DNA of 32,000 nucleotides from Tissierellales bacterium (GCA_041655135.1 JBBAFY010000006.1:12242-44241); one strand, 5' to 3'. Positions 3,146 to 18,803 are shown, counted from the stretch's first letter. The notes: generated by a model not told the origin, from the sequence alone. Program-made: numbers and translations.

Positions 3146-6100
3146 TTAAAAAGTTAGGTTTTCGGCACCATGCTTCAGTTCCATTTCATAGATATTGCCA
3201 TCGCTCATTATGAGCAGGTTTCCATTGTCTAATACATTATGAAAACTTACTGGAATAGAAAGTATAAGGTTTTCTAGTGTCTTTATATCAATATATATAA
3301 TCCCATCCTGAGTGATTTCAGATATTTTATCGGCTGTAAACTTTTCTTTTAATTCTACTTTCATTTGAGTAATAGTCTGGTGTCCAAGCCTTTGTTCTAG
3401 AACTTCCTTTAGATACTTTGGTTTTATATAGGAAATAGATTTTCTAATGGAACTAGACACTCTGTTATATACGATGATTCCTCCATAGGTTAATATCCAA
3501 ATCTCATTTAAAAGCGCTAGAATTTCCATATCTTCTGCTACTAATTCATCAAGATTTAACCCATGCTCTCCTTCAAACAAACACTCTTTGCTCATCTCAT
3601 CTCTGATATGAAGTACATCCTCAAAAACCCATATTTTAAATGAATAATTAGTATCAAATATTTTAACAGGAGTCCTAGTTTTCAATAGATGTTCAGGATA
3701 ATATTTCTTCACAGTTATAGATTTTGTCAGAATATCTAACGTAAATTCTGACTCTGAAAACTTGTAGGTAATAAACTCCTGATTTTCTTCGATGGCTCTA
3801 CATTCATCTCTTAAAATACCTTCAATATTTACTTCATCAAAAATAGGACAATTCTGCTGGAAGTCCCAGGCATATAAATCGTCTTCTAATAGCCAGATAT
3901 ACACATATTTATAGCATCTTAGATAAGTTATGCGTTCCTTTTTCCTCTCTATGTGTTCGGGCATTTCAATTTTCATACAGTTTAACTTGCCATCAGATAA
4001 ATCCAGAACACAAATGCTCTTAGTGTTCATAAACCATATCTTTCCATCTCCATAACCTCTAATTGCTATGCCTTTGCTTCCATTATCCAACATGTTGTGA
4101 TTAGTCTCATAAATACATCTGTTTTTTTCATAATCCCACACGTGTATCTTATCCCTTAACACCCATATCTTATAATTTTTATATGTATACTCACCTATGA
4201 TGCCATTCTTACCTGCAGGTATAAAATCAGGATGTTCTTTGAACTCAATTTTAAAATTATCAATATGTAGCCTAATATCTCCCTCTGGTGTAAAAATACA
4301 AACTTCATTATCTAATATTTGATATATACGATTATGTCTGCTATGAAATCTTGTTAATCTAAAAGCCTGACCATTTGGTGGCAGAGTAATTTCCCTGCCT
4401 AAGTCTTCTTCAAACAAAGCTGTGGGGTTAAGAGTCATAGGTTGCTGCAATACCTTTATCCTGTTCTTATATACCTCGACAATTATATTATCTAAATATA
4501 TCGAAAATCTTTCCTCAAACTCGAATGTACTGCCTTTAGACGTATTTCTCAATGGCCATCCGAAAAAACCAACATTTTCTTCAGCACTATAAGGTTGAAA
4601 AATATCATTTTCTATGCATTCATGTTTTTGATAATTTTCATTTTTTGTGCGTATACCTTCCTCCCAGCTTCTCATTCCATATTTATCATATGATTCTGTT
4701 AAGCAAATAAATTTATTTCGGTCTTTCTCAAGGTTAGCTATTATCAATAAGTCATCATCAACTTTAAAATAATCTGAAGAATCTCTGCCACCAGTAGTAT
4801 AGCTACATGGAATAGGAAAGCTACATGAAAACTCTTCTCCCTTAAGATACTTTCCCCAAACTCTCATATTATGAAGATCATCATCTATATATATGATATT
4901 TTCATCAACTTCTACTCTTGACACTGCATAAAATCCCTTGGCCTGTGTATGAGAAAGAAGGGAAATCTCCAGTTTACTGCTTTCATTTTCCGTAATAACA
5001 ATATCCTTTGATATAGCTATTTTAGGAATAAAGTCATTGTAATTCAGCTTCCTATATATTTTCTCTTTTATGATTCCTTCTTCTTTGTCAATAATACTCC
5101 AGGAATTTTCAAATTCAAAAACCTGAACCATACCCATATCCTTGCAAGTGCTGTAATAAATCTCACAATCTAGACCATCAAACTCTATAGAGTTGACACA
5201 TTCCTCTGTAAGCATATTCCACATGTCAACACGAGGATACTTACTAGCCCCATCCCTATCCTCTAATTCAACATAAAGATAATTTCCACATATTTTTCTA
5301 CTGTTAAAGGATTCTTCTCTTCCTTTGTAATACTCTTTTATTATTCTGTAAGGCTTTGTCATTTTATGTGTAAGCTTATTATATACTAACAATAATCCTG
5401 CTCTATCACTGATGACCAGAAGCTCTTTAGTGCCTTCCATATGTAATCTTTTTAAGCCATGGGTGTTTTTAATAGTGCAGCCAGACTCATGGATAAGCTC
5501 CATAGTGTTTAAATCCCAAATTTTTAAAGCAGATGGAGCCATTGTAAGTAAATAGCCATCCTTATATGAGTAATAGTTAACACCATTCAACTCTTCTAGC
5601 TTTTTCCCAGACTTCTTATCCCAAAAAATTAGCTGTATATCAACATGCACTTCTTTCTTGGTTTTACCAATAAAGCTCCATTGGTCTTGTCTTTCTTCTT
5701 CACTAATATCCACCTCTTGGCTTAGTGCACTAACTGAAATAATGACATCCTTGTAGCATTCCATATAGAGAATATGATTCCTATGTCCTTTCAATATACA
5801 AAGAAGCTCACCATTGGTCATGTCGTATACTGTAATGTCGTTTTTATCATCTTTTTCTAAATAATAATCCCATCCTAGTGCAATTTTTTTATCTTCTTTT
5901 ACAGTAGTAAACTCCATTCCCCATTTTAGATCTTTTGCTTGCTTATTGACAGATTTGTTTTTCCTATGCATAATTTTATGGGATTCTATTTCTCCGAGTT
6001 CCATATCTATACGATACTTAATAAAGTCGTAATGGCTACCCACACTATAATTTAAGTAATTCCCTTCAAGTGAAAATCGCCCATCATAGTCATGATAATT

Positions 6101-8722
6101 ATTTTTAAACAATATTCTCTCTGACAGCCAAATCCTTTCCTTTAGGTGTATAGAAGGTTTCAAATCCCATATTTCTAAAATTGATACTTCTTCAGATCTG
6201 TTGATAAGTATATATAAGCTATCTTCTATTACCTGCCAATCATGGCAGATATCATATTCCATATATTCATCCTCAGGCTCATCAATAAGGATATTGCTAA
6301 CCTTATTTATATTTTCAGGTTTATGACAATACTCAGATAAAGGCTTTAGCCAAGGAAAGTTCGTTTGTCCCTCTAGGTCCTTTAACAAAGAACTGATTTG
6401 CTGGTTAGTAATCTTTCCTAGCCATAGATATAAAAAGGTGGGTAGCTCCAATACAGATATATCAATGGCATGCTTAGATCTTTCCAATGCATTCTGAAGT
6501 TGAACAATGGCTTCATTCTGCTCACTTATATAATTAAAATCCAGTAGTAGCTCATCAATTCCACAGATTCTAATTTTGTTATATAAAAAACTGTAATTTA
6601 AAAGAATCCTCTCTATTTCGTCGTCTTGACCACTTGCATGAAGATGATAAGTCAGCTCCCTATAGGCAGCTACAGTTTCGGCATTTATCCTATCCTCTTC
6701 ATTGAATTTTAGCTTGTTCCTGTATACCTTTGCTAGACAACTATGGAACTCTTTTTTCTGAGATTGGTATCTTTCCTGTGTTGCCAGCTTAAAACTTTCA
6801 TAAAAATAACTCAATTTCTTGCCATGGTATACAAGATAATCCCTCATCTGTCTGATATATTCGTACATCTTCTCTTTAATTGCTTCATTTTCTGGATCTA
6901 GACCTTTACTAAATCCAATCCCTGCTATGAGCTCCTTAGACTCTAATCCGTTCCTAGAATAAGCCATTAGTCCAAATAGACCCTTAACTATATCTGCATT
7001 ATAAACACCCTTCTCAATATAGTCTGCATCTTCCTCCATCCGTCTAAGTACTTTATTAAATGCACTCTTGCTTGTATCCCCAAAATCATATATCTCCTGT
7101 CTCAAATTATCAAATGATCCATAAATCCTAAGCTCAGATAATAAAATTTTAAGATATAAGGGGTTCTCTGTTGCATCAATTTTCAACAATTCATTTTTAT
7201 CCGTATCACTAAGCTTTTTCAAATAAGTAGCTAAGAACTCGTCAATCAATTGCTCTCTTATATCCAATGAAGAAAAACTATTGAGTTCCATTAGATTGTT
7301 GAATCTGTTTTGAAAACGTAGGAATCCTTTTTCATTATCTAGGGCTTTGCAGCTTATGACCATTTTACTGTCTGCACTAAGTTCATTAGGAATCCAAGCC
7401 ATACTGTCTAGGGTTTCCTCTAGCTCATTTACAGAATCAATCACAATAGTAATCTTGCTTTTTAGACACTTCATTATCTTTTTCCAGAATCTAATTAATT
7501 GCTTTGGCTGATTAATGAGACCAGTTATTGACATATCCATTTCATTTTCTATTTTGTCAGTATCAAAGCAATTACCAGCATGTAATTCTTCTGCAATACT
7601 TGATAACAAATCCTGAGTGCGAATGCTTTTATCCCCAACTCCACAAAAACGGTAGCAGATTCTTTCTCCACGCTCACTCAACAATTTTATAATATTAGCC
7701 ATTAGGACTGTCTTTCCAACACCTGCATTAGCATATACTAAAAGTGGTTGTTTAGATTCCCCACCCACATATTCTAATAACTGTCCTACCTCTTCATTAC
7801 GCCCAACAAACTGATGGAGATTTCTGTGAAGGAATTCTTCCTGCTGGACTAATTCATCATCTCCGCTCATATCCATTTTTTCGCTACAATTCTCAGGAAA
7901 CTCCTTTTCAATTGCCTTAGTCAAACCTTCAAATATATAATCCTTAAGGTCTGTGAAGGCATCATCTTTAATTCTGAAATTAGTTAGCCTTCCCTGACAC
8001 AGGGAGTCTCCAAGCTTGTCCGATTTTAGTTCTGGAGTCCTCTGATTCTTATCAAAATCACAGCAATACTCATTCCATTCATACATTGATTTATGAACTT
8101 GCTCCATTGTACCTAGCTTTAATTGGTTCTTAAATGACTCCAATATCTGATCTTCTTTTTCTGGAGACTGAGCTAAAGCATTAGTATAAATATTTAATAA
8201 TGGACCATAGGAATTAGTCATATCATCCAAATAACTAGAGTTTCTAAATAGAAAAAGAGCATTTCTCACTCTTTTGTGTTTTGTTACTTTACCTGTTTTG
8301 CTATCTTTTATTTCAAATGGGTTTATCAGTGCATGCATTATTTCAAGCTCTGTTACAGAACTTTTTCCTATGGATCCGTCTATATCTACAATCTTCTCAT
8401 AGGTAGAAAGAGCAACGTCCTCCTTTTCTGGCACCCAACCCCTTCTCTGGCCTAGGAAGCAAAGAAAGAAAGGTCTACATTTATCAATATTATCTAGACA
8501 TATTTCAACTACCTTATTGTTTAAGCTGTCCGATTCTTCACTTGTGATTCCCCATCTTAAATCAATATCAACGAGCCGTAGCTTTCTTTCCATGCACCAT
8601 TCTGAAAGTTTAGGAAAAACGCTTTTTATCAAATAATCACGTTCTGCATGCATATCATTAAATGTACTGCTTATAAAAACATAAACATTTTGCCATTTAA
8701 GTGTATTTTTGTGCTCTGCCAT
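3146..8722 (-). CDS. Giant STAND NTPase with DUF4062-like N-terminal domain, NACHT-type P-loop NTPase, helical region and a long degenerate WD40/beta-propeller region
   Basis: GGAGG RBS at 8732-8736, 9 nt before ATG 8722. DUF4062-type N-terminus at aa 13-95: VYVFISSTFNDMHAERDYL...VDIDLRWGI...CRPFFLCFLGQRRGW. Walker A is LLVYANAGVGKTVL (aa 327-340, nt about 7703-7744). The NACHT-like Walker B is ITIVIDSVNELEE (aa 423-435). The helical part contains NPLYLKILLSELRIYGS. From about aa 800 to 1858 there are repeated blade-like units, for example ITVYDMTNGELLCILKGHRNHILYMECYKDVIISVS, KIWDLN, IHVWDYE and LYAWDF. Confidence 0.85.
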   Translation of the reverse strand: MAEHKNTLKWQNVYVFISSTFNDMHAERDYLIKSVFPKLSEWCMERKLRLVDIDLRWGITSEESDSLNNKVVEICLDNIDKCRPFFLCFLGQRRGWVPEKEDVALSTYEKIVDIDGSIGKSSVTELEIMHALINPFEIKDSKTGKVTKHKRVRNALFLFRNSSYLDDMTNSYGPLLNIYTNALAQSPEKEDQILESFKNQLKLGTMEQVHKSMYEWNEYCCDFDKNQRTPELKSDKLGDSLCQGRLTNFRIKDDAFTDLKDYIFEGLTKAIEKEFPENCSEKMDMSGDDELVQQEEFLHRNLHQFVGRNEEVGQLLEYVGGESKQPLLVYANAGVGKTVLMANIIKLLSERGERICYRFCGVGDKSIRTQDLLSSIAEELHAGNCFDTDKIENEMDMSITGLINQPKQLIRFWKKIMKCLKSKITIVIDSVNELEETLDSMAWIPNELSADSKMVISCKALDNEKGFLRFQNRFNNLMELNSFSSLDIREQLIDEFLATYLKKLSDTDKNELLKIDATENPLYLKILLSELRIYGSFDNLRQEIYDFGDTSKSAFNKVLRRMEEDADYIEKGVYNADIVKGLFGLMAYSRNGLESKELIAGIGFSKGLDPENEAIKEKMYEYIRQMRDYLVYHGKKLSYFYESFKLATQERYQSQKKEFHSCLAKVYRNKLKFNEEDRINAETVAAYRELTYHLHASGQDDEIERILLNYSFLYNKIRICGIDELLLDFNYISEQNEAIVQLQNALERSKHAIDISVLELPTFLYLWLGKITNQQISSLLKDLEGQTNFPWLKPLSEYCHKPENINKVSNILIDEPEDEYMEYDICHDWQVIEDSLYILINRSEEVSILEIWDLKPSIHLKERIWLSERILFKNNYHDYDGRFSLEGNYLNYSVGSHYDFIKYRIDMELGEIESHKIMHRKNKSVNKQAKDLKWGMEFTTVKEDKKIALGWDYYLEKDDKNDITVYDMTNGELLCILKGHRNHILYMECYKDVIISVSALSQEVDISEEERQDQWSFIGKTKKEVHVDIQLIFWDKKSGKKLEELNGVNYYSYKDGYLLTMAPSALKIWDLNTMELIHESGCTIKNTHGLKRLHMEGTKELLVISDRAGLLLVYNKLTHKMTKPYRIIKEYYKGREESFNSRKICGNYLYVELEDRDGASKYPRVDMWNMLTEECVNSIEFDGLDCEIYYSTCKDMGMVQVFEFENSWSIIDKEEGIIKEKIYRKLNYNDFIPKIAISKDIVITENESSKLEISLLSHTQAKGFYAVSRVEVDENIIYIDDDLHNMRVWGKYLKGEEFSCSFPIPCSYTTGGRDSSDYFKVDDDLLIIANLEKDRNKFICLTESYDKYGMRSWEEGIRTKNENYQKHECIENDIFQPYSAEENVGFFGWPLRNTSKGSTFEFEERFSIYLDNIIVEVYKNRIKVLQQPMTLNPTALFEEDLGREITLPPNGQAFRLTRFHSRHNRIYQILDNEVCIFTPEGDIRLHIDNFKIEFKEHPDFIPAGKNGIIGEYTYKNYKIWVLRDKIHVWDYEKNRCIYETNHNMLDNGSKGIAIRGYGDGKIWFMNTKSICVLDLSDGKLNCMKIEMPEHIERKKERITYLRCYKYVYIWLLEDDLYAWDFQQNCPIFDEVNIEGILRDECRAIEENQEFITYKFSESEFTLDILTKSITVKKYYPEHLLKTRTPVKIFDTNYSFKIWVFEDVLHIRDEMSKECLFEGEHGLNLDELVAEDMEILALLNEIWILTYGGIIVYNRVSSSIRKSISYIKPKYLKEVLEQRLGHQTITQMKVELKEKFTADKISEITQDGIIYIDIKTLENLILSIPVSFHNVLDNGNLLIMSDGNIYEMELKHGAENLTF
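3151..3175. repeat. Degenerate copy of dyad repeat family A overlapping the 3' end of the STAND gene
   Basis: aagttaggttttcggcaccatgctt compares with aagattggtgcctggcaccatgctt at 1901-1925. It encodes the last residues (HGAENLTF) of the 1858-aa ORF. Confidence 0.6.
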
Positions 8723-8742: not shown

Positions 8743-10449
8743 CTATTTGTACACCTTTAATCCAATGGTATTTAATAATGAAATAATGTTCCTCACTGTA
8801 TCCCTATCAAGTTCCTTAACATCCTCTGTAAGCTCCTCATATGGTATAAGGTGCGGACTAATCTTATTATCTATATCCTTTGCCTCACCATAGGTCCATC
8901 CATTTTTGCTCCTTTCATCTACCCATGAATCATGCTCAATCTTGGATAAATACTCTATCTGAGAAGGTTCCAATTCCTTAATCTCAGTTCCTCCCTCATT
9001 CTCCTCAGATGCACTATATCCTAGATACCTCAGTTTATCAGTTATAGTTCTTGCCTGACGTATATTAGAATACTTCAAGTCTTCAGGTAGGCTTTCCCAA
9101 GTAGGGTGCTTTAGTTCAATATCTGGATTTCTTTCAATTTGGTTTTTGTTATAATCAGCATGAATTGACTTAGCAATTTTTTCAATATTTATAAGTAATG
9201 GTCTTGGAGCTATCTTGACATCTTGTTCTTGGATTGTTTCTATATATAAATCAGAACCTGCCAAGCATTCCACCTTAATACCATCTTTAAATAGAGCCTT
9301 AATATCGATAACACTGTTAAATAGAGCTTCCTTCTTTTCAGCAAAACCTCTTTCCATGGCTCCCTTTGGTGCTAAATATGTAATTGCCATCTGAGTCTCT
9401 GTCATATTAAGTCTAGACCCATCAGCAAGAACCCTCTTTTTGTCTTCAATTCCATAGGCTTCACGATTCCATTCCTGTAATTCATCACATAATATCAATA
9501 GATAAGCATAGGGGTGCTTCTCTGGAGTTAAGGCTCCTAGTGAAAATGGCTCCTTCATCAATACATTTTTATAATAATTATGCAGCAAAATCGCTCCTGC
9601 AGCATCTACTATCTCGTTATATAAAACATCGGAACTAATCCCACTCATTTGAAGCATATGACCATACCATTTCAATAATATAATTGAACTATAGAATCCA
9701 TGGTCTACAAAACCAAACTTTTGCATATTGCTTAAGAAGTCACTTAAGTACTTCTTAGTAGTCTCTAAATCTGTCCCAAGCCTGCTTTGTATATTATAGC
9801 TCAATAAGTCTAATGCTTTATTAGGGTCAATATGATTTAAATCTGCTATTGAATTATCATCTATAGAAATAGTAGGCACCCTATTTAACACCTCAAAGTC
9901 TTTAAATGCTAAATAAGGATCTGCACTCTTATTTTCACCATCAACATCACTTACTAACTTGATAAATTTTTTGATTTGATTGTTGGTAATTTCCACAGGA
10001 TATCCTACATCATGACAAAGAGAGGCAATTCCCCATTTAAATAGAAACTCCTTCCTAGATGATTCATATTTTTCTCTACTTTTACTATTCTTCTCATGAT
10101 CCTCTTCTATAATAGTCCTAAGGTTTTTATTTTGGGCATAGATAGCTAAACCTAAAACAAATACATTAACTGAGTGGACATAATGATCTCTCTGCTTGTC
10201 AATTAGAGTAGCAGCGTTTTCTTCATAGCTTTTCAAGACATCTAATAGGTCAATAAAGTTCTTTTTCCCCTGCAACAAAATTTTATAACTATCAAAAAAA
10301 GTTACATACACATCAAATGCAGTCTCTTTATTCTCATCCTTAAGAAAATTAGCTATTGCCTCTTTCAAATAAATCTCATAATCATTGGCTTTTCTTGTTT
10401 CCTTCCTTAACTTAAAGAAATCAATTACATATTCTTTTTTTAAACCCAT
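8743..10449 (-). CDS. HD-domain phosphohydrolase fused to a C-terminal RyR (ryanodine-receptor repeat, PF02026-type) module
   Basis: GGAGG RBS at 10456-10460, directly abutting the upstream stop codon. HD signature residues are RDHYVHSVNV (H89, H92), CHDVGYP (H146-D147, nt 10009-10014), DHGFYS, LLHN and LCDELQ. The C-terminus, LSKIEHDSWVDERSKNGWTYGEAKDIDNKISPHLIPYEELTEDVKELDRDTVRNI, is a strong match to my recollection of the RyR-domain consensus. Confidence 0.8.
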   Translation of the reverse strand: MGLKKEYVIDFFKLRKETRKANDYEIYLKEAIANFLKDENKETAFDVYVTFFDSYKILLQGKKNFIDLLDVLKSYEENAATLIDKQRDHYVHSVNVFVLGLAIYAQNKNLRTIIEEDHEKNSKSREKYESSRKEFLFKWGIASLCHDVGYPVEITNNQIKKFIKLVSDVDGENKSADPYLAFKDFEVLNRVPTISIDDNSIADLNHIDPNKALDLLSYNIQSRLGTDLETTKKYLSDFLSNMQKFGFVDHGFYSSIILLKWYGHMLQMSGISSDVLYNEIVDAAGAILLHNYYKNVLMKEPFSLGALTPEKHPYAYLLILCDELQEWNREAYGIEDKKRVLADGSRLNMTETQMAITYLAPKGAMERGFAEKKEALFNSVIDIKALFKDGIKVECLAGSDLYIETIQEQDVKIAPRPLLINIEKIAKSIHADYNKNQIERNPDIELKHPTWESLPEDLKYSNIRQARTITDKLRYLGYSASEENEGGTEIKELEPSQIEYLSKIEHDSWVDERSKNGWTYGEAKDIDNKISPHLIPYEELTEDVKELDRDTVRNIISLLNTIGLKVYK

Positions 10450-10460
10450 TTTTATCCTCC

Positions 10461-12305
10461 TTAATTAATGTTTTTAAGTAACTGAGCTACCACTTCATAA
10501 TCATATTCTTGAAATGCAGTCTTGCTTTTTTGACAAGGTAGTTCAGCTAATTCATCCCAGCTAACTAGACATAAATGCTTCTTTTCATTCTCTCGTTTTG
10601 CTATATTGTTGCTTTTCTCTTGGTCTGTAAGCTCCTCTGCCAATAAAGGAGTCCATCCACGTGCATAATGAAATCCACACCATCTATAGTGCTCATACAT
10701 AGCTAGTTTCCAATATATATCCTCACCAGTGTTATTATTGTTAATTAAGCCTAGTTTGTTTACAGTATCTCTAGCAGATGCACGATTAGAGTCCTTAGTA
10801 AAAACGCTTAATTCTCTCCACTGATTCACTTTTTTGTCCTTTACATTCTTCTTGTAGTTTTCATGAACTTGTTTACCTAGCTCATCAGCCTTTCTTAAAA
10901 TCAAGTTATCATATGTATATATATCCTTAAACATATTTATGGCATAGAGCATATGACTTTGTGAAGTCAGTACCTCTTGGTCATATTCTTTATCTCTAAC
11001 GAAGAATATAATTTCAGGCTTGTCCTTTTTTAATTCTCTATTCTGTATGAAACGGTCTAGCTTAAGTGCAGTTTTGACATTTTGATTGCTATCACCTGTT
11101 ACTATGAAAAATTGATGAATCTGAGCTAGCTTGTCTCCAATTACTTGGTAAAACTCCTCGGTTCCAATAGCAGTATCACAAAACTCTATGGAGTTTTTAT
11201 GGGCAAAATAAGGAACATCCGTTAGGAAATCCTGCTTTAGCCTTTTCATGTTTTCGTCTATAACTAATGCTCTATAAGGTGCCTCTGAAAAATCTTCCCT
11301 TAAAAATCTTGAGTTTTCATAGGTCGCTAAGAGTAGCTCTTGACCTAAGTCACCAAAGCCAATTATACAAGCTGAATATGGTTCCTTTACTAGATTAAAT
11401 GAATCCTTGTCATAGAACTCATTGTTTTTCTCTAAAACTACAAGAGGTGAGTGTTTTTCTCTTAACTTATCTACTACTAATTGTTCTTCTGATACTAAAT
11501 ATGTATCTAACTTTATATCCTTCAAGTTTTGAAAGCGAAGCTGTTCATTGTCGCAAAAAACAGTAATGTTAATATTGCTAAATTCCGTGCCATGTGAATT
11601 GTCTTCAATATTTTTTGCAATACTATTCAGTTTTCCTAAATATTCAATATTCTCGTTTTTGTCCTCTAGTAATAAAACAATATGGTATTGGTGAGATGGT
11701 TTCCCATTGTTAATGGGATTATCAGCTAGAAAATCATCCAATTTTTTTACTCTTACATTCCCAAAATTCTTAGCTTTATGGTCCACTTCTTCCCTTGTAT
11801 AATATGTTATTACTTTATCCTTAAAATCAGCCTTACTGGATATATCGTCAATCAATGCATGGGCACTGACAATGTCCCCAACAATCAATATCTTGTTAGG
11901 CTGTTTATTATATATGTACCAAAGCTTAAATTTGTGTATCTTGTCAGAAAGAAGAAAAACACTAAGAGTACCAGCGGTATTTAATGATGAAATAAGCAGG
12001 ATTGTCCATATTTGTATTTCAATCAGTTGCTCATCGCCAAGAATATGATATACTTCTCTAAACCTTTGAAAGCTTAAATCAAAAGCAACTCCCTTAAGTG
12101 CTAAATATAGAGCATTAAATATGATCAAAACCATTGCTTTTAAGTCCATATTTGTCTGCATTAGATACCCTAGCACTAAAAAAATACCAAAAACAAATAT
12201 GTAATTGTAGGACCAAAGAACAAGCCTTTCAATATTTTTATCCCTTGCTTTTCTAGAGGACCATATAACAATACACAAGATAGAAAAATAAATAGCTAAT
12301 ATCAT
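10461..12305 (-). CDS. Membrane protein with 4 N-terminal TM helices, two Rossmann-like (TrkA-N-like) domains and a C-terminal RyR-type module
   Basis: Hydrophobic helices lie within aa 1-120. The Rossmann-like segments are KILIVGDIVSAHALIDD (glycine motif degenerate) and ACIIGFGDLGQELL (GxGxxG). The C-terminus has QVHENYKK...WRELSVFTKDSNRASARDTVNKLG followed by YEHYRWCGFHYARGWTP...HLCLVSWDELAE, parallel to the C-terminus of the adjacent HD protein. An AAGGTGA RBS precedes ATG 12305. Confidence 0.75.
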   Translation of the reverse strand: MILAIYFSILCIVIWSSRKARDKNIERLVLWSYNYIFVFGIFLVLGYLMQTNMDLKAMVLIIFNALYLALKGVAFDLSFQRFREVYHILGDEQLIEIQIWTILLISSLNTAGTLSVFLLSDKIHKFKLWYIYNKQPNKILIVGDIVSAHALIDDISSKADFKDKVITYYTREEVDHKAKNFGNVRVKKLDDFLADNPINNGKPSHQYHIVLLLEDKNENIEYLGKLNSIAKNIEDNSHGTEFSNINITVFCDNEQLRFQNLKDIKLDTYLVSEEQLVVDKLREKHSPLVVLEKNNEFYDKDSFNLVKEPYSACIIGFGDLGQELLLATYENSRFLREDFSEAPYRALVIDENMKRLKQDFLTDVPYFAHKNSIEFCDTAIGTEEFYQVIGDKLAQIHQFFIVTGDSNQNVKTALKLDRFIQNRELKKDKPEIIFFVRDKEYDQEVLTSQSHMLYAINMFKDIYTYDNLILRKADELGKQVHENYKKNVKDKKVNQWRELSVFTKDSNRASARDTVNKLGLINNNNTGEDIYWKLAMYEHYRWCGFHYARGWTPLLAEELTDQEKSNNIAKRENEKKHLCLVSWDELAELPCQKSKTAFQEYDYEVVAQLLKNIN

Positions 12306-12367
12306 GTAGTAATCACCTTAAGTAGTATATTCAGGTTTTAGGATACCTGTAAACCTATAATATACTA

Positions 12368-14496: not shown

Positions 14497-17481
14497 TTAA
14501 TGTATCTTAAATATAATAACTTCTTCTACATCAATAAATCCTTCGTCATTTCCATTATGCTGAAACCTTAGCTGTTGAGTTCCTGGCTCAATGTCAGGAT
14601 CTGTTGTAAAGTTAAGTTCATAAATATTCCAATCATGGCTAAGGCCTATGTTTCTTAAATCAGCCTGTGTTTTCTTTTCAGCATTACCATCATATACATA
14701 GAATCTAAAGGTGTCTTCCTTTACATTTCCTCTCGCTTTAAACACAACCTTATACTCAGTCTCTGGTTCTAATTTTAATCCAGATGTATATACTATTCCA
14801 TATTTGCTTTCATCGTTAGTTATTCTATTATAGGTATTATCAAACTCTTCTAATGTCTCGCACTTTATATTTCCACCCTCAGCGCTCCTAGTTGCTAATT
14901 TATCTATCCTGCCATCATTATTTATATCTAAGTCAAAGTAATATGCAAAGTCAAGGGAATAGTTTTCGCCTATAGCATATTCCATACTGCTAAGGTTTTC
15001 ATGATTGAATTGCATATATCCTATTTTATATAATAAGTCTTCATTATATTTTAAAGGTCTTAGGGCTGTAGAATTGATATCTATGATCTGTTGTTTTACA
15101 CCATAGCCCTTTTCTACGATTTCTTTAGCCCTGTCCATATCCCCTTGATCTATATAATGATAAAATGCAGTTAAATAAGCATCACTTTTTTGAACATACA
15201 TCTCAGTTCTCATGGGTTGAGTATCTACTGATCTCTCTATTAATTCAAGTGACTTATCTACCTGGCCTATGCTCATAAAAAATGAGCTTCCTATTGCATT
15301 TAGATTTGAGTTGTAACTTGCTAGATTTAGTCCTTTATCCACAGATTCAATTGCTTTATCTAGATAATCCCGGGTGCCGGTCACCTGATACATTGCTTTG
15401 TAAAACGACCCTACATCCATTTTGTATTCTGGCATAAATGGGTCTAGCTTTGATGCTTTTTCAAAATTTCTAAGTGCTTCAGTAATATCCTGTCTACTAT
15501 TGGCTTCTAAACCTTTTTCTTTATAGGATTCGCTCAGTATAAGTGAAGATGAGCCTATAATTACTAAAACTAATAAAACAGAAAATCCAATATTCATATA
15601 AGTGTACTTAGGCCTATGATTTTTGATTTTTGTTTTATTAGGTATTACATCCTTAGCAGACACTGCTACTGTACTAGCTGATAATAGACCGATAAACACC
15701 CATAATATATTTGTAAGAGAAACTAATGATAAATCAAAGTCCATGAATGCATGTCCAAGTATCCCCACTACTGCTATAAATATTGTTGAAATTAATAGCC
15801 TTTTATTCTCTGATTCTGTAGCTCTGTATGATTTCAAAAGTTTATAAACTAGAACTAGCATTGAAGCAACAAAGAGTCCTAATCCTACAATTCCTACTTC
15901 TATCCACATCTGTAAGAAGTAGTTGTGAGCTTGAGTAGTCGAATATGAGTATGATTGGTACATTTGATACAGTGTTACCCACCCACCACCACCAGCACCT
16001 AATATAGGATAGTCCTTTATTACTTTAAAGGCATCCTTATAAAAGGCTATTCTGGCTTGGGAACTATTTTCGCTTAAGCTAATATTTTGAAATCTGCTAT
16101 ATATATTCTCTGGTATATACTTATATCTTAATGGGACTTCCTTTATTAAATTACCTACTTGGTCATAAAGTATGGCCTCTTCATAGGTAATATCTGTGCC
16201 TACATAGAAGTTGTCAAAGTAAATCCTAAGACTTTCTGTATTATCTAGCGTAGAAAAGAAGATATTCAATTCTCCTTGCAGTTCGTCTATTTGAGTAGCG
16301 CTTAAGCTTGTTGCTTTTTCTTGATTATCCTCTAAGCCAACTGCATTTACCCTTACTCTTCCTATGTAGGACTTGTCCTCAATATTTGTTCCCCTATATT
16401 TAACCTTTAACTCATATTCATGGTTTGGAAGTATACCATCTATGCTTCTTGTAACAACAGTCCATTTATCTTTATCTGTATTATTACTTAACGTAAGTTC
16501 TGTAGTTGTATTGAGTGCAGCAAAGACTCCTGCCCCTAACAATACTAATATAGCGATTACAAAGGCAAAGAGTAACTTGATAGATATCTGCTGAAGCTTA
16601 TGAGATATTAATGATACTAAGTATGTAAGTAAAGCTGAAGCTACTATAAGTCCAAGGACTATCATCCATAGCACTGTACTAACTCCCTTTGCTAATATAG
16701 AAGTGAATATAAAAGCTAAAGGAATAGAAACTATCATACTAGTGGCTGTATAGACAATAAGCTCTAGTTTTCTTCTGTTGGGTATGATAAAAAATAATAA
16801 TATAAGTAATAAAGGCAAAATCAGCCACATACCTCTCGAATAAGTAAGTATAAAAGTAAAAAGCATTAAAGACGAGCATGCACCATATAATGCTTTAAGT
16901 TTCTTATTATCTGACATAATAGTTAAACCTAATATCAAAATGAATACTGCTGCTAAATATGAAGCCAATGTGTTAGGATATTGAAAGGTTGAGCTTATTC
17001 TGTTACCCATAACTGCTCCATTATATTCCCAGGTTCCAATAGCAGAGCCTATACCTACAAAAGCTATGCCTACAGCGCTCAGAACTATAGTATTGAGCAA
17101 ATACTTCTGGTGTTTTTCTTCTCCTATTAAGTCCCTAGCTAGTATATATAGTGCAAAATAATTGCCATATTTTAATGCCTCTATAATCGCAAGTCGTGTA
17201 TTTACACCGTATGCGATAGAGATAAAATACATTAGCATCAGACCTAGAACCAAAATATCTATACTAGATTTAATAAGTTTATAGTCTTTATCCCTATACT
17301 TATATATGATCCAAACCAAGGCTAATGAAAAGGAAAATATCTGGGCTGGTAATAGCTCTCCTTCAAAAAACAATCCTCTAAAATATGGACCTATGAAAAG
17401 TAACATACACAGTCCCCAAAATATAATATATTCAATTGCAGAATCTTTCCCCTTATTTATAGACGCAGATTTTGCTGCCAT
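14497..17481 (-). CDS. O-antigen ligase/polymerase-like (Wzy_C) polytopic membrane protein with an internal jelly-roll-like domain, TPR-like repeats and a C-terminal carbohydrate-binding-like domain
   Basis: About 10 or more TM helices. The Wzy_C-type motif is QAHNYFLQMWIEVGIVGLGLF. TPR-like helices follow (ALRNFEKASKLDP..., LDKAIESVDKGL...). There are two similar beta-rich segments (EYELKVKYRGTN... and EYKVVFKARGNV...). I chose the start at ATG 17481 because GGAGG sits 7 nt upstream; the track start at 17520 overlaps the wzz-like gene. Confidence 0.75.
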   Translation of the reverse strand: MAAKSASINKGKDSAIEYIIFWGLCMLLFIGPYFRGLFFEGELLPAQIFSFSLALVWIIYKYRDKDYKLIKSSIDILVLGLMLMYFISIAYGVNTRLAIIEALKYGNYFALYILARDLIGEEKHQKYLLNTIVLSAVGIAFVGIGSAIGTWEYNGAVMGNRISSTFQYPNTLASYLAAVFILILGLTIMSDNKKLKALYGACSSLMLFTFILTYSRGMWLILPLLLILLFFIIPNRRKLELIVYTATSMIVSIPLAFIFTSILAKGVSTVLWMIVLGLIVASALLTYLVSLISHKLQQISIKLLFAFVIAILVLLGAGVFAALNTTTELTLSNNTDKDKWTVVTRSIDGILPNHEYELKVKYRGTNIEDKSYIGRVRVNAVGLEDNQEKATSLSATQIDELQGELNIFFSTLDNTESLRIYFDNFYVGTDITYEEAILYDQVGNLIKEVPLRYKYIPENIYSRFQNISLSENSSQARIAFYKDAFKVIKDYPILGAGGGGWVTLYQMYQSYSYSTTQAHNYFLQMWIEVGIVGLGLFVASMLVLVYKLLKSYRATESENKRLLISTIFIAVVGILGHAFMDFDLSLVSLTNILWVFIGLLSASTVAVSAKDVIPNKTKIKNHRPKYTYMNIGFSVLLVLVIIGSSSLILSESYKEKGLEANSRQDITEALRNFEKASKLDPFMPEYKMDVGSFYKAMYQVTGTRDYLDKAIESVDKGLNLASYNSNLNAIGSSFFMSIGQVDKSLELIERSVDTQPMRTEMYVQKSDAYLTAFYHYIDQGDMDRAKEIVEKGYGVKQQIIDINSTALRPLKYNEDLLYKIGYMQFNHENLSSMEYAIGENYSLDFAYYFDLDINNDGRIDKLATRSAEGGNIKCETLEEFDNTYNRITNDESKYGIVYTSGLKLEPETEYKVVFKARGNVKEDTFRFYVYDGNAEKKTQADLRNIGLSHDWNIYELNFTTDPDIEPGTQQLRFQHNGNDEGFIDVEEVIIFKIH

Positions 17482-17492
17482 TAAGCTACCTC

Positions 17493-18803
17493 CTATGATT
17501 GAACTGCCGATTTTTCCCAATATTCTCTAAAGAACACAATAAATATTCCCGCCATCAAACCTAATACTCCAGCAATAGCTACATTGAGCATTTTCCTTGG
17601 AGCTACTGGTTTAATCGGTACTATGGCTTGAGATATTATGTTAATAGTAGACTCTCCCATTTCTGTGGTTTCTGCTACTCTAGTCTCTTCGTATTTCTTC
17701 AGAAAAGAATCATAGGTTGCCTGTGCTATATCTACATTTCTTTGTACTAAATTAAGCTGGTACTTCTTTTCTGCAAGTTCTGATTGGATGAGCTCTATTT
17801 CTTCCTGAGTTTCATCTATCTTATTTTTCATCATTTCTAGCTCTTTTGTTGCTTCTGATATTGTCATCTTATAATCTGCAACTCTTGCTGAAAGCTCTAA
17901 ATAGTTAGTGTTTATCTCTTCATTTTGCATTGTAATGCCAGCCGTTTCAGTAGCTGGAATATTGTTATTTTCTGATATTATGGTTGCTAGTATCTGGTCT
18001 TCAGATACGGATTTGTTTGTAACAAGTATCTGAGGAGTATTATTTAGCTCATCTTGTGCTGTTGCTAGCCCTGCATTTAGTTTGCTTAACGCAACTTCAT
18101 TTTCTACTATCTCGACCTTATATTTGCTTAGTAGATTTAGTTTTGCATCCTGCTCACTTGATAACTCTATTACTCCTCTTGGCTGAGCCATTAACTTCTT
18201 AAGCTCTAAAGAGGCCTCATCCAGCTTTTGCTTCTCTAAATCAATCTGAGTTTTAAGAAATTTAGATGATTTAGAGGCCTGATCTTTTGTTATATCTGTA
18301 ACGAATTCAGTAAACCTACTAGCTACTGCATTAGCTATATCTGATGCCAATATTGGATCACTATTGGCCACCTTTATTTCGATTAAATTTGTGTCTTTTA
18401 TAGATTCGAGACTTATCATATCTCTTAGTCTTGACCTTGATATTCCCTTTTCAGTAAGGTTTAACTCATCTATTACTTGTTGTAATACCTTTGGAGTCTT
18501 GATCTGCTCTTTATATGTCTGTATAGTCAGTACCGGATATGTGGATATAGTACTGAGAATTGCCTCTACACTATCTCCACTTCTATTTACATTAGTTAGC
18601 TTGTCAGTTGCTAAGGATGCCATAAGCACTGATTTTGCTTCATATGTAGGTTCTATTATATAAAAGCTATATACACCAGCTACTAAAACACATATAGCTG
18701 TTATGATAGCAATTAACTTCCAGCCTTTTAGTAAAGCCTCTATAAGCTCTCTCAAGGATATTTCGTCGTAGTCATTCTGTTGTATTATCTCTTGTTGCTG
18801 CAT
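17493..18803 (-). CDS. Wzz/chain-length-determinant (polysaccharide co-polymerase) family protein
   Basis: The N-terminal motif and TM segment are ISLRELIEALLKGWKLIAIITAICVLVAGVY...EPTYEA. A long coiled-coil extracytoplasmic region follows. The C-terminal TM segment is MLNVAIAGVLGLMAGIFIVFF. No adjacent tyrosine-kinase partner is present. Confidence 0.8.
   Translation of the reverse strand: MQQQEIIQQNDYDEISLRELIEALLKGWKLIAIITAICVLVAGVYSFYIIEPTYEAKSVLMASLATDKLTNVNRSGDSVEAILSTISTYPVLTIQTYKEQIKTPKVLQQVIDELNLTEKGISRSRLRDMISLESIKDTNLIEIKVANSDPILASDIANAVASRFTEFVTDITKDQASKSSKFLKTQIDLEKQKLDEASLELKKLMAQPRGVIELSSEQDAKLNLLSKYKVEIVENEVALSKLNAGLATAQDELNNTPQILVTNKSVSEDQILATIISENNNIPATETAGITMQNEEINTNYLELSARVADYKMTISEATKELEMMKNKIDETQEEIELIQSELAEKKYQLNLVQRNVDIAQATYDSFLKKYEETRVAETTEMGESTINIISQAIVPIKPVAPRKMLNVAIAGVLGLMAGIFIVFFREYWEKSAVQS

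Follow-up and report, generated by a model that had tools for sequence, protein, structure and literature searches.

Results

The window analysed here, the whole stretch of 32,000 nucleotides from a Tissierellales bacterium (GCA_041655135.1 JBBAFY010000006.1:12242-44241), carries a string of three genes on the minus strand. The gene at positions 3146..8722 is a single open reading frame for a STAND/NLR-like sensor of 1858 aa, in which Pfam models and structure prediction mark a DUF4062 domain, a NACHT-clade NTPase, a helical domain and a beta-rich C-terminus. An identical protein is entered at NCBI as 'MAG: DUF4062 domain-containing protein [Tissierellales bacterium]', and the strings quoted in the preliminary description of this DNA (FISSTFNDMHAERDYL, DIDLRWGI, CRPFFLCFLGQRRGW and NPLYLKILLSELRIYGS) all occur in the frame. 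Placed 20 nt upstream is a gene of 568 aa (8743..10449, minus strand) that combines an HD-motif alpha-helical domain, a small alpha/beta domain and a tandem RyR (Repeat12-like) domain (HD-RyR). A further gene of 614 aa (10461..12305, minus strand) lies 11 nt upstream of this first partner and joins N-terminal hydrophobic segments to a TrkA/RCK-like Rossmann region and a divergent tandem RyR domain (TM-RyR). The preliminary description overlooked the two adjoining RyR-domain genes, which tell more about the locus than any other part of it.

Directly upstream of the three-gene string is a promoter-like site (12324..12353, minus strand; TTTACA-18-TATACT) with 10 of 12 consensus matches, although such sites are overall no more numerous than expected from shuffled sequence. 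Between the three genes the scan gave no terminator-like site. A 301-aa lipoprotein gene (2041-2946) and a 103-aa open reading frame were rejected as members of the unit because they are not conserved in related loci. The locus is surrounded by capsule, flagellar, cell-wall, MreB and sporulation genes, and no recognisable defence island or known defence gene was seen near it. None of the three proteins matched a PADLOC model beyond weak P-loop ones; for the STAND protein these were mad8 (E 0.002) and RtcR (E 0.011), both on the P-loop, and the Avs and bNACHT models of PADLOC gave no match to it. PADLOC and NCBIfam scans of the STAND protein and four neighbours returned nothing useful.

The N-terminus of the STAND protein had been taken for DUF4062 at first sight, and this was borne out by Pfam (PF13271, aa 15-101, E 1.4e-11, 44.9 bits against a cut-off of 24.7). 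As a single sequence it matched the TIR-like domain of human TEP1 (PDB 11gz_A) over aa 10-134 (E 1.8e-18), and the family profile matched the same solved domain with E 2.7e-35 at profile positions 4-206. The domain (aa ~10-206) is encoded at 8105..8695 (minus strand). Its putative catalytic motif, S122-V-T124-E125-L-E127 (SxTExE; 8342..8359, minus strand), aligns to 'SVTEME' of TEP1, and S122, T124, E125, E127 and H130 do not vary among 26 relatives; in a set of 120 relatives their conservation is at least 90%. In the alignment of SVTELE to SVTEME, the counterpart of TEP1 E1008 is E125 or E127; both Glu residues are invariant in the family. The catalytic Glu of DUF4062 enzymes sits, according to the literature, in an 'acidic-SYT / E-Y' region. 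The role of DUF4062, effector or oligomerisation domain, was an open question in the preliminary description and has since been answered: the domain is a TIR-like NADase (Osinski et al. 2026). The characterised enzymes, KpSwz and TEP1, are reported to yield linear ADPR and to act by NAD+ depletion, not by signalling, and abortive infection is mediated by DUF4062 proteins (Osinski et al. 2026). With its SxTExE motif intact, the DUF4062 domain of the STAND protein is a predicted TIR-like NADase.

The P-loop NTPase of the STAND class (aa ~304-492; 7247..7813, minus strand) carries a Walker A motif, G334-V-G336-K337-T, and a Walker B region, ...VID429S. G334, G336, K337 and D429 are invariant in relatives, and both Walker motifs are intact. 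The region passed the Pfam cut-off with the NACHT-type P-loop model NPHP3_N (aa 323-450, E 1.1e-11, 45.7 bits against 24.8) and was also matched by ATPase_2 (E 9.7e-9), whereas it stayed below the cut-offs of NACHT itself (PF05729, E 1.4e-3, 18.9 bits against 26.7) and NB-ARC (17.9 against 23.5). Close STAND relatives in two other loci, L149 and L152, passed the NACHT cut-off. Among the PDB profile matches to the NTPase there was no NLR chain, and the top match was an NB-ARC protein (E 0.004). A helical/winged-helix region follows (aa ~500-790; 6353..7225, minus strand), which holds NPLYLKILLSELR and an APAF1_C-like domain. The APAF1_C helical domain passed the Pfam cut-off at aa 657-733 (E 7.5e-6), and APAF-1 chains were matched by the family profile at positions 584-751 (E ~1e-9). 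Residues N520, P521, L522, L528, E530 and G535 are invariant in relatives. These results agree with the earlier assignment of the NTPase to the NACHT/STAND class, more exactly as a NACHT/NPHP3-type STAND followed by an APAF-1-like helical domain. The NPLYLKILLSELR helix, proposed as a hallmark of the group, is likewise invariant or near-invariant across the prokaryotic family.

The C-terminal sensor region (aa 791-1858, 1068 aa; 3149..6352, minus strand) is divergent. Among 1.84 billion representatives its relatives were just the STAND protein itself and two fragments, and a word-indexed search with it matched the STAND protein alone. The AF2 model of aa 791-1858 is poor (pLDDT 41.9, pTM 0.27) because the alignment of this near-orphan sequence is just 5 rows deep. 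It is near all-beta, with about 70 short strands in groups of four, equivalent to about 17 predicted four-strand units. The top Foldseek matches of this model were all tandem WD40 propellers at TM 0.1-0.2, low values that give a hint only. The best-predicted part (aa ~1467-1762; 3437..4324, minus strand; segment residues 677-972 by DSSP of the AF2 model, pLDDT 50-72) is modelled as seven successive four-strand groups, as in a 7-bladed propeller, and is common to P0002, P0121 and P0122.

Demonstrable similarity to WD40 is confined to about 3 blades at aa ~940-1080 (5483..5905, minus strand), where an HMM of the C-terminus and 4 relatives matched the WD40 repeats of canonical homologues. No WD40 model of Pfam reached its threshold. 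The sole hint was Beta-prop_WDR3_1st (E 0.0066, 16.6 bits against a cut-off of 154) at aa 961-998, that is nt 5729-5842, which coincides with the one clear blade noted earlier at nt 5740-5840. The degenerate repeats with 'hhhWD' strand-ends described there were also recovered, as weak ends, by a WD-repeat HMM made from the canonical repeats of the family (aa 849-855, 959-978, 1031-1044, 1065-1078, 1524-1538 and 1568-1579). The description of the region as WD40 propellers is supported only in part: aa ~940-1080 have profile similarity to WD40 and the rest of the C-terminus has none, and the all-beta model is of low confidence. With 1068 aa the C-terminus is long, as had been stated, but not exceptionally so, the full lengths of homologues spanning 1116 to 2658 aa. 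A multi-propeller C-terminus is likely, not proven, because about 17 four-strand units are predicted and yet only aa ~940-1080 are WD40-like.

In the HD-RyR protein, Pfam recognised RyR (PF02026) with E 9.8e-16 (58.2 bits against a cut-off of 27.4). The AF2 model (pLDDT 85.7) matched in Foldseek the whole Repeat12 domain of human RyR3, with both repeats, over ~190 columns at TM 0.6, and phage RyR proteins of BFVD were matched as well. The tandem RyR domain (aa 416-568; 8746..9204, minus strand) was delimited by alignment to RyR chains and by invariant columns. Compared with RyDEP and RyR-Tad it retains the ligand-type residues H506, W509 and D548, and S531 replaces the phosphate-binding His. 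H506 and D548 are the counterparts of the H75/D117 catalytic dyad of the phage glycosidase RyDEP. The N-terminal HD-motif domain (aa ~65-330; 9460..10257, minus strand) is all-alpha in the AF2 model, and its residues H89, H92, H146-D147, D249-H250, H290 and D322 are invariant in 93 sequences. Pfam HD was the only recurring family, sub-threshold in 4 of 10 members (best E 0.014). A profile search of this domain alone against PDB gave no match at E<=10, and Foldseek of the whole model against PDB and BFVD gave RyR-domain matches only, none for the N-terminal fold. From its motifs and the sub-threshold Pfam matches, the domain is a candidate HD phosphohydrolase or nuclease. The HD-RyR family comprises at least 1124 clusters.

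The TM-RyR protein has hydrophobic segments at aa 28-46, 57-75 and 101-119 and the motifs EHYRW...KHLCLVSWDEL...YDYE. It was aligned by hhalign to a TrkA_N+RyR family over aa 308-594 (probability 98.2%, E 3e-14), and its RyR assignment comes only through this alignment, as Pfam RyR gave E 0.72. Against PDB sequences it had no match at E<=5. The second partner in related loci is of three types: TrkA_N+RyR, SLOG+4TM and the type found in the window. SLOG+4TM is a predicted Thoeris effector class.

A search with the STAND protein gave 1225 cluster representatives in Bacillota, Chloroflexota, Actinomycetota and methanogens. Nearly all of the best 120 of these carry DUF4062 together with a P-loop/NACHT model, and most also have WD40 models. 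The domain order had been called metazoan (NWD1-type) in the preliminary description, which implied that it is rare in bacteria. This is not supported in view of the 1225 prokaryotic representatives, and bacterial 'TEP1-like' proteins are already mentioned in 2026 preprints, including the Evangelion preprint. The DUF4062-NACHT-WD40 architecture in bacteria is already known, and the STAND protein alone is a further member of a large prokaryotic family. A phage-borne unit was also considered, and the idea was dropped because scans of IMG/VR viral contigs for HD-RyR and for the STAND N-terminus gave no relative.

Linkage of a STAND gene to an HD-RyR gene was observed in the window and in loci L149, L001, L002, L003-5, L070/71 and L152. 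Gene order in L149 is as in the window, and in L001 the contig stops within the HD-RyR gene. Some loci have the STAND gene upstream of HD-RyR, others have it downstream. The linked neighbours were seen again in no fewer than six independent loci, which come from different samples, in altered order and with 11-20 nt between genes. Between the window and L149, identity is 81% for HD-RyR, 72% for TM-RyR and 42% for the STAND N-terminus, and the STAND C-terminus is not alignable. Evolution of the sensor is much faster than that of the two partners.

A scan of GTDB genomes centred on HD-RyR gave 64 loci, in which neighbours were counted within four genes. A DUF4062 gene was found in 16 and a TIR gene in 31 of the 64. 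The TIR genes mostly encode ThsB-type TIR with LRR and lie directly downstream on the same strand, and three residual loci carry divergent ThsB_TIR genes, so that about 50 of the 64 have a DUF4062 or classical TIR gene nearby. Where 5 kb or more is present on each side of HD-RyR, the proportion is 22 of 30 loci. HD-RyR is fused to TIR in P0140, P0142, P0157 and L007, and at least a dozen loci are two-gene units of TIR-LRR and HD-RyR, lacking any other conserved gene. DUF4062-STAND and classical TIR-LRR are interchangeable beside HD-RyR. Conversely, about 50 of 80 DUF4062-STAND loci from metagenomes have no RyR or SLOG partner; the STAND protein can evidently work alone because of this. A literature search found no description of this pairing, and no searchable paper contains both 'DUF4062' and 'RyR'.

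Discussion

On balance we lean towards the view that the locus is a three-gene, Thoeris-like unit of a conflict or anti-phage system, in which a STAND-controlled TIR-like generator would act together with RyR-domain effectors. A trigger would be recognised by the divergent beta-rich C-terminus, the NACHT-type NTPase would then oligomerise, and this would bring together the N-terminal DUF4062 (TIR-like NAD+ glycohydrolase) domains. Their ADP-ribose-type product (ADPR or a cyclic isomer) would be sensed, through RyR domains, by the two proteins encoded upstream. Both partners probably read such a product of the STAND protein. One effector would be soluble and carry an HD-motif domain of phosphohydrolase or nuclease type; the other would sit in the membrane, with a 2TM/pore-like segment and TrkA/RCK-like domains, and may change the flow of ions. 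Several points count against this view: the DUF4062 enzymes KpSwz and TEP1 are reported to deplete NAD+ and not to signal, the phosphate-binding His is Ser in HD-RyR, about 50 of 80 DUF4062-STAND loci have no RyR or SLOG partner, the HD assignment comes from motifs and sub-threshold Pfam matches, PADLOC models gave no match, and the surroundings are not a recognisable defence island.

Thoeris systems (types I-XI) combine a ThsB TIR generator with an effector that carries a ligand-binding domain. The present locus is similar in that an NAD+-consuming TIR-type domain is encoded beside proteins that carry a domain with known binding of cADPR isomers. The likeness extends to the family, as HD-RyR occurs far more often beside ThsB-type TIR(-LRR) genes (31 of 64 loci), several effectors per operon are also found in Thoeris, and SLOG+4TM is among the alternative partners. 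However, the generator in the window is a DUF4062 domain within a STAND protein, an Avs-like layout that was deliberately excluded from the Thoeris survey. The window proteins are not members of the described types (the effector families ThsA and ThsC-ThsL) and have no PADLOC match. In the available passages of the text and supplement of the Thoeris I-XI paper, RyR, PF02026 and TrkA are absent. Two of its types were considered as homes for the partners and discarded: type XI ('hydrolase') is a HIT hydrolase, and for type X ('ion channel'), compared by description only, RyR and TrkA are absent from the tables in the part available. It is possible, although we propose this tentatively, that host RyR (Repeat12-type) domains are the native receptors of ADP-ribose nucleotides made by TIR or DUF4062 domains and that the locus represents a new Thoeris-like class. 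At the same tentative level, the components of this class would be a TEP1-type NADase in an NLR-like sensor, an HD-RyR enzyme and a channel-like 2TM/TrkA-RCK-RyR protein.

The STAND protein shares with TEP1, NWD1, NWD2, NPHP3 and the bacterial TEP1-like proteins the order of DUF4062, NACHT-type NTPase, APAF-1-like helices and, probably, a beta-propeller-type C-terminus. It differs from them in that it has no TROVE or vWA module, its C-terminus is barely recognisable as WD40, and its gene forms an operon-like unit with those of two RyR-domain proteins. With the Avs/bNACHT STANDs (SIR2- or TIR-Avs) it shares a build of three parts, namely an effector, a STAND NTPase and a repeat sensor, and the expected logic is the same, namely activation driven by oligomerisation with NAD+ as the target. 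In contrast to these, its effector is DUF4062, it has dedicated partner genes and it matches no Avs or bNACHT model of PADLOC. Swarozyc (KpSwz) and Evangelion (Eva01) belong to the same catalytic family, and NAD+ depletion and aborted infection have been shown for them; KpSwz is activated through direct binding of the phage portal. Unlike the present protein, both are single-gene systems with a short helical auxiliary region, and they have neither NTPase or propeller nor partner genes.

According to two 2026 preprints, in which no host counterpart is named, phage proteins with RyR domains can bind cADPR isomers and related immune signals of the cADPR type, or cleave them. RyDEP, RyR-Tad and the animal RyR Repeat12 have the same fold as the partners (TM ~0.6 to RyR3), and the H-x2-W and D residues are kept. 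The RyR domains of the window differ in being host-encoded, arranged as an intramolecular tandem and fused to an HD-motif or membrane/TrkA-like module. HD-RyR also has Ser for the phosphate-binding His, and its role would be the reception of a signal, not evasion.

The alternative that survives best, which we nevertheless regard as unlikely, is that the STAND protein is a self-contained abortive-infection NAD+ depleter like Swarozyc or SIR2/TIR-Avs and that the RyR proteins play an accessory part instead of being effectors. Their task could be to remove ADPR and cADPR, by breakdown or sequestration, and so limit autoimmunity, or to block the rebuilding of NAD+ from ADPR by phages (NARP1-type counter-defence). 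Such rebuilding is known in phages, the known DUF4062 enzymes turn NAD+ into ADPR and nicotinamide, and breakdown of ADPR by an HD phosphohydrolase is plausible. The H506/D548 pair, as the counterpart of the RyDEP dyad, and the lack of RyR or SLOG partners in most DUF4062-STAND loci also fit this alternative. However, the two-gene units of TIR-LRR and HD-RyR, found in at least a dozen loci, have a generator-plus-effector layout, and the alternative partners are membrane proteins of SLOG+4TM/SLATT-like and channel-like kinds, which typically kill cells and do not serve as housekeeping enzymes for clean-up. In addition, phage RyR proteins that have these residues mostly bind their ligand without cleaving it (RyR phage preprint).

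TrkA/RCK domains normally regulate K+ transport, and this usual target would suit a non-immune housekeeping or stress module, in which an NLR-like NTPase would couple a cellular cue to NAD+/ADPR-dependent ion flux and nucleotide metabolism. The setting among capsule, flagellar, MreB and sporulation genes, where no known defence gene was found nearby, and the lack of relatives in IMG/VR viral contigs are in keeping with such a module. We consider it improbable because the patchy distribution across phyla, the shuffling of partner modules and gene order, a sensor that has diverged extremely compared with its partners, the association with ThsB-type TIR-LRR proteins and the experimentally shown defence roles of DUF4062 and TIR signalling are marks of conflict systems. 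That the RyR adjacency is incidental and the STAND protein merely another bacterial DUF4062-NACHT-WD40 protein would agree with the many relatives that have no RyR neighbour, but it is very improbable given the co-occurrence counts, with neighbours recurring in at least six independent loci at altered order and gaps of 11-20 nt and a DUF4062 gene in 16 of 64 HD-RyR loci.

The enzyme family at the N-terminus of the STAND protein (DUF4062) was characterised in 2026, and what is new here is the context of RyR partners. The Thoeris census, in its available portions, has no RyR effector, and the DUF4062 papers treat the domain as an NAD+ depleter. About 60 related loci and the window now link the observations on phage RyR, Thoeris and DUF4062. 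They predict that effectors of this kind form a widespread family, with no fewer than 1,100 clusters from anaerobic Bacillota, Chloroflexota, Actinomycetota and Bacteroidota, whose RyR domains would sense what is made by TIR-LRR or DUF4062-STAND generators, the two being interchangeable. If this is true, the origin of the phage RyR sponges and glycosidases would be explained, and DUF4062, and by extension TEP1/NWD-type proteins, could signal besides depleting NAD+. Gating of a channel with RyR domains by a nucleotide (cADPR) would also have a forerunner in bacteria. The proposal bears on the downstream role of the NADase domains of TEP1/NWD-type proteins and on the ligand of the RyR repeat domain of ryanodine receptors.

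Results

The gene for the STAND protein, which combines DUF4062, an NTPase and a helical domain with a long C-terminus, is a single uninterrupted ORF of 1858 codons on the minus strand (3146..8722). All peptides quoted in the preliminary description were located in it, and public databases contain the identical sequence, annotated 'DUF4062 domain-containing protein' and derived from a Tissierellales MAG. In Pfam, the protein matches DUF4062 (aa 15-101, E 1.4e-11, over the curated cut-off), NPHP3_N, a P-loop model of NACHT type (aa 323-450, E 1.1e-11), and the helical domain of APAF-1 (aa 657-733, E 7.5e-6). For the NACHT model itself the score stays below threshold on this protein; the close relatives at loci L149 and L152 pass this Pfam threshold. 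Residues 1 to ~200 are similar to the solved TIR-like domain of human TEP1 (PDB 11gz_A) at E 1.8e-18 as a single sequence and at E 2.7e-35 when a profile of 26 relatives is used, and S122-V-T-E125-L-E127 aligns with SVTEME of TEP1. S122, T124, E125, E127 and H130 are invariant across the family, as are the Walker A residues of G334xG336K337T and D429. The helical region matches APAF-1 structures at E ~1e-9, and the post-NTPase helix NPLYLKILLSELR, which had been called characteristic of the group, proved to be a family signature. Because of the TEP1 match, the invariant motifs, the APAF-1 matches and the NACHT scores of the relatives, the original interpretation of aa 1-790 as DUF4062, NACHT-type NTPase and helices is right.

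The preliminary description implied that the metazoan NWD1-type domain order is rare in bacteria. This is not supported: 1225 cluster representatives were recovered in the search for homologues, and the architecture is no rarity in prokaryotes. The named sources among the matches listed are Clostridia, Chloroflexota, Actinomycetota, Eggerthellaceae, Methanobrevibacter and Methanoregula, and most homologues among these matches carry canonical WD40 repeats. The protein is a new member of a known family, and a highly divergent one.

The C-terminus (aa 791-1858) had previously been read as a long degenerate WD40 propeller region. Among the matches listed, the aligned span of most homologues is confined to the first 43% of the protein, and only the related proteins P0002 and P0003 reach further. 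With aa 791-1858 as the query, a word-indexed search found nothing beyond the protein itself, and scanning all 1.84 billion representatives with HMMER added only P0121 and P0122, both of which have aa ~1500-1780 in common with it. P0121 (653 aa) and P0122 (368 aa) have no Pfam match and overlap the STAND protein only in its last predicted propeller; they may be either fragments of that sensor module or copies of it that stand alone. No Pfam WD40 model is over threshold, and the only WD40 hint, Beta-prop_WDR3_1st at aa 961-998, coincides with the 'one clear blade' noted earlier at nt ~5740-5840. A repeat HMM trained on WD40 repeats of the family detected only weak 'hhhWD' strand-ends, and an HMM of this C-terminus with four relatives matched the WD40 regions of canonical homologues exclusively via aa ~940-1080. 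At the sequence level, demonstrable WD40 likeness is thus limited to about three blades; the earlier reading of this region as WD40 propellers is only partly supported, and the fold of the whole region is not established. The AlphaFold2 model from a 5-row alignment is of low confidence (pLDDT 41.9, pTM 0.27) and consists of nearly all short beta-strands, grouped by four into ~17 units, of which seven are consecutive at aa ~1467-1762 with pLDDT up to 50-72. Foldseek with this model returned tandem WD40 propellers only (Utp21, WDR36-type, IFT-A and APAF-1) at E 1e-13 to 1e-10, but with TM scores of 0.1-0.2. The region is likely to form two or three highly degenerate propellers.

Directly upstream of the STAND gene on the minus strand lies the gene for HD-RyR (8743..10449, 568 aa), a protein with a C-terminal RyR domain, and upstream of this the minus-strand gene for TM-RyR (10461..12305, 614 aa). 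The intergenic gaps are 20 and 11 nt, a promoter-like site precedes the three-gene string, and no terminator-like site was found within it. The remaining window is of housekeeping character (capsule genes, flagellar rod, MreB, SpoIID, 5'-nucleotidases and MurA). There is no compositional sign of a recent insertion of the unit, the G+C content of the window being uniform at 0.32-0.40. All ORFs of more than 100 aa in the window are on the minus strand, save a deacetylase gene (385-1278) and short ORFs within longer minus-strand ORFs, and GC skew is negative in each 1-kb bin of 1-32000. Elsewhere in the window, the tandem paralogues at 25985-28015 and 28132-29844, with metallophosphatase, 5'-nucleotidase C-terminal and LysM domains, look like secreted or wall-bound nucleotidases. 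In an unusually large protein of 1007 aa (14497-17520), a Wzy_C domain of O-antigen-ligase type is joined to a carbohydrate-binding module, CBM_4_9, at the C-terminus; the ORF shares 28 nt with the end of the Wzz-like gene upstream.

The neighbours of the STAND gene recur at related loci. L149 has the gene order of the window; the order is STAND, HD-RyR and a 649-aa homologue of TM-RyR at L003-5, L070/71 and L152, and a 579-aa SLOG-like 4TM protein, HD-RyR and STAND at L002. At L001, the start of HD-RyR is 62% identical to that of the window before the contig end cuts the gene. The linkage has persisted through reordering of the genes, which points to a functional unit. Between L149, the closest related locus, and the window, HD-RyR is 81% and TM-RyR 72% identical, whereas the STAND N-terminus (aa 1-796) is only 42% identical and the C-termini fail to align, so the STAND gene diverges, or is swapped, far faster than the two partner genes. 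This arms-race signature supports a sensor role for the STAND protein. Among 80 metagenomic STAND loci, 28 have a RyR- or SLOG-type neighbour and seven have HD-RyR itself. No relatives of HD-RyR or the STAND N-terminus were found on IMG/VR viral contigs.

One genome per GTDB species was scanned for HD-RyR relatives and 63 loci were fetched; the census set, analyzed by ORF calling and phmmer tagging, comprised 64 loci, including the window, L002 and L003. Within four genes of HD-RyR, a DUF4062 gene is found at 16 of the 64 loci and a TIR-domain gene at 31; the 17 loci with neither are in many cases truncated by contig ends. Of the 30 loci with 5 kb or more of sequence on each side, 22 have a TIR or DUF4062 gene. 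The adjacent TIR genes mostly encode Pfam TIR_2/ThsB_TIR with LRR and lie directly downstream on the same strand; ThsB_TIR and TIR_2 are also the commonest Pfam neighbour families in the residual loci (three further loci). These counts indicate that HD-RyR is a constant module and that its neighbour is a TIR sensor of the classical type or else a DUF4062-STAND. Modularity extends to the second partner, which can be TrkA_N+RyR, SLOG+4TM or the window type. A C-terminal TIR_2/ThsB_TIR domain is fused to HD-RyR in P0140, P0142, P0157 and L007 (a 751-aa ORF, L007:496-2232 and downstream), and these fusions unite components elsewhere encoded as neighbours. At L150, HD-RyR is paired with TIR proteins bearing NHL propellers: a 432-aa TIR_2 protein and a 1388-aa NHL/fn3/TSP3/TIR_2 protein lie a few kb upstream (L150:903-6775), and the NHL-TIR_2 proteins are another sensor type joined to the module. 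In the Bacteroidales MAG loci L050 and L051, TrkA_N-RyR, HD-RyR, a 97-aa RyR-only protein and a DUF4062-STAND form one gene string, with a 642-aa TIR protein in addition at L050 and a second DUF4062 gene at L051.

The HD-RyR family comprises at least 1124 clusters, annotated merely as 'RyR domain-containing' or hypothetical. In the AlphaFold model of HD-RyR (pLDDT 85.7, 93-row alignment), an all-alpha domain (aa ~1-335) is followed by a small alpha/beta domain. By Foldseek, the C-terminal ~190 residues superpose on the entire Repeat12 domain of human RyR3, with a TM score of ~0.6, and also on phage RyR proteins. The helical domain shows an HD-type pattern of invariant residues (RDH89xxH92, CH146D147xGYP, D249H250, H290 and D322), and Pfam HD, sub-threshold in 4 of 10 members, is the sole recurring family. 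Since neither PDB sequences nor Foldseek gave a match to this domain, 'HD' stays a motif-level call. In the tandem RyR part (aa 416-568; 8746-9204), H506, W509 and D548 are the counterparts of the ligand or catalytic residues H75, W78 and D117 of RyDEP and H129, W132 and D171 of RyR-Tad. The phosphate-binding His (RyDEP H100, RyR-Tad H154) is replaced by an invariant Ser (S531), with H or Y two residues on, and the ligand of HD-RyR may differ from 2'/3'cADPR.

TM-RyR has three hydrophobic segments at its N-terminus. Profile-profile comparison (probability 98.2%, E 3e-14) shows homology to the TrkA_N+RyR family (L016:2484-4250, L029:6937-8778, L050:8552-10201 and relatives), extending over the second Rossmann-like domain and the two RyR repeats of TM-RyR; the genes of this family adjoin HD-RyR in at least 10 loci. 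The family's proteins of ~550-610 aa have two TM helices either side of an 'LYLTLGLISLN' segment, with TrkA_N next and RyR at the C-terminus. The topology is K-channel-like (2TM/P) without the TVGYG filter, and suggests that they may be channels.

Discussion

The role of DUF4062, left open in the preliminary description, is now answered in print: the domain is a TIR-like NADase whose catalytic Glu is E97 in the Swarozyc protein KpSwz and E1008 in TEP1, and NAD+ depletion by bacterial members (Swarozyc) leads to aborted infection (Osinski et al., bioRxiv 10.64898/2026.05.01.722283). The same study describes the order DUF4062, NACHT, APAF-1-like helices and WD40 as common to NWD1, NWD2, TEP1 and NPHP3. 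According to the Evangelion preprint (10.64898/2026.06.25.731849), the catalytic Glu lies in an 'acidic-SYT / E-Y' motif; 'bacterial TEP1-like' proteins that have NACHT and WD40 are also mentioned there. Thoeris is defeated by phage proteins with RyR domains, through cleavage or sequestration of 2'cADPR, 3'cADPR and cADPR (PMC13232231; 10.64898/2026.06.04.730250).

The best-supported reading of the three-gene unit is a Thoeris-like system. Its functions are inferred throughout from the sequences, the predicted structures, the neighbouring genes and what has been published on related domains. The divergent beta-rich C-terminus of the STAND protein would sense a trigger, and the NACHT-type NTPase would oligomerise as in APAF-1 and NLRs. 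The clustered DUF4062 domains, in which the motif is intact, would then cleave NAD+, as reported for the family. The product would be bound by the RyR domains of the HD-motif enzyme and the membrane TrkA/RCK-like protein, as phage RyR biochemistry and the gene association suggest, and these two proteins would execute the response. In the main rival explanation, depleting NAD+ is enough for the STAND protein to kill, and the RyR proteins are accessories that scavenge ADPR/cADPR or serve as off-switches. This explanation is favored by the report that KpSwz and TEP1 yield ADPR only (Osinski et al., 10.64898/2026.05.01.722283) and by the many STANDs without partners, including many full-flank loci among the 80 metagenomic ones that have no RyR- or SLOG-type neighbour. 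However, minimal pairs of TIR-LRR and HD-RyR exist, and the alternative partners are of killer type, both of which argue against it.

On the Thoeris-like reading, the unit would belong to TIR/NAD+-based signalling immunity, a kind of system already known. The Thoeris census (10.64898/2025.12.03.692087) covers types I-XI, type XI being a HIT hydrolase, and 29 predicted effector classes, SLOG+4TM among them; it excludes TIRs within Avs-type STANDs, and RyR, PF02026 and TrkA are absent from its text and accessible supplements. No paper naming both 'DUF4062' and 'RyR' was found in the searchable literature, and as far as could be found the unit of STAND and RyR proteins is undescribed. Parallel pairs of TIR-LRR and HD-RyR occur elsewhere; in this unit, a TIR-like NADase embedded in a STAND is combined with RyR-domain proteins of the host.
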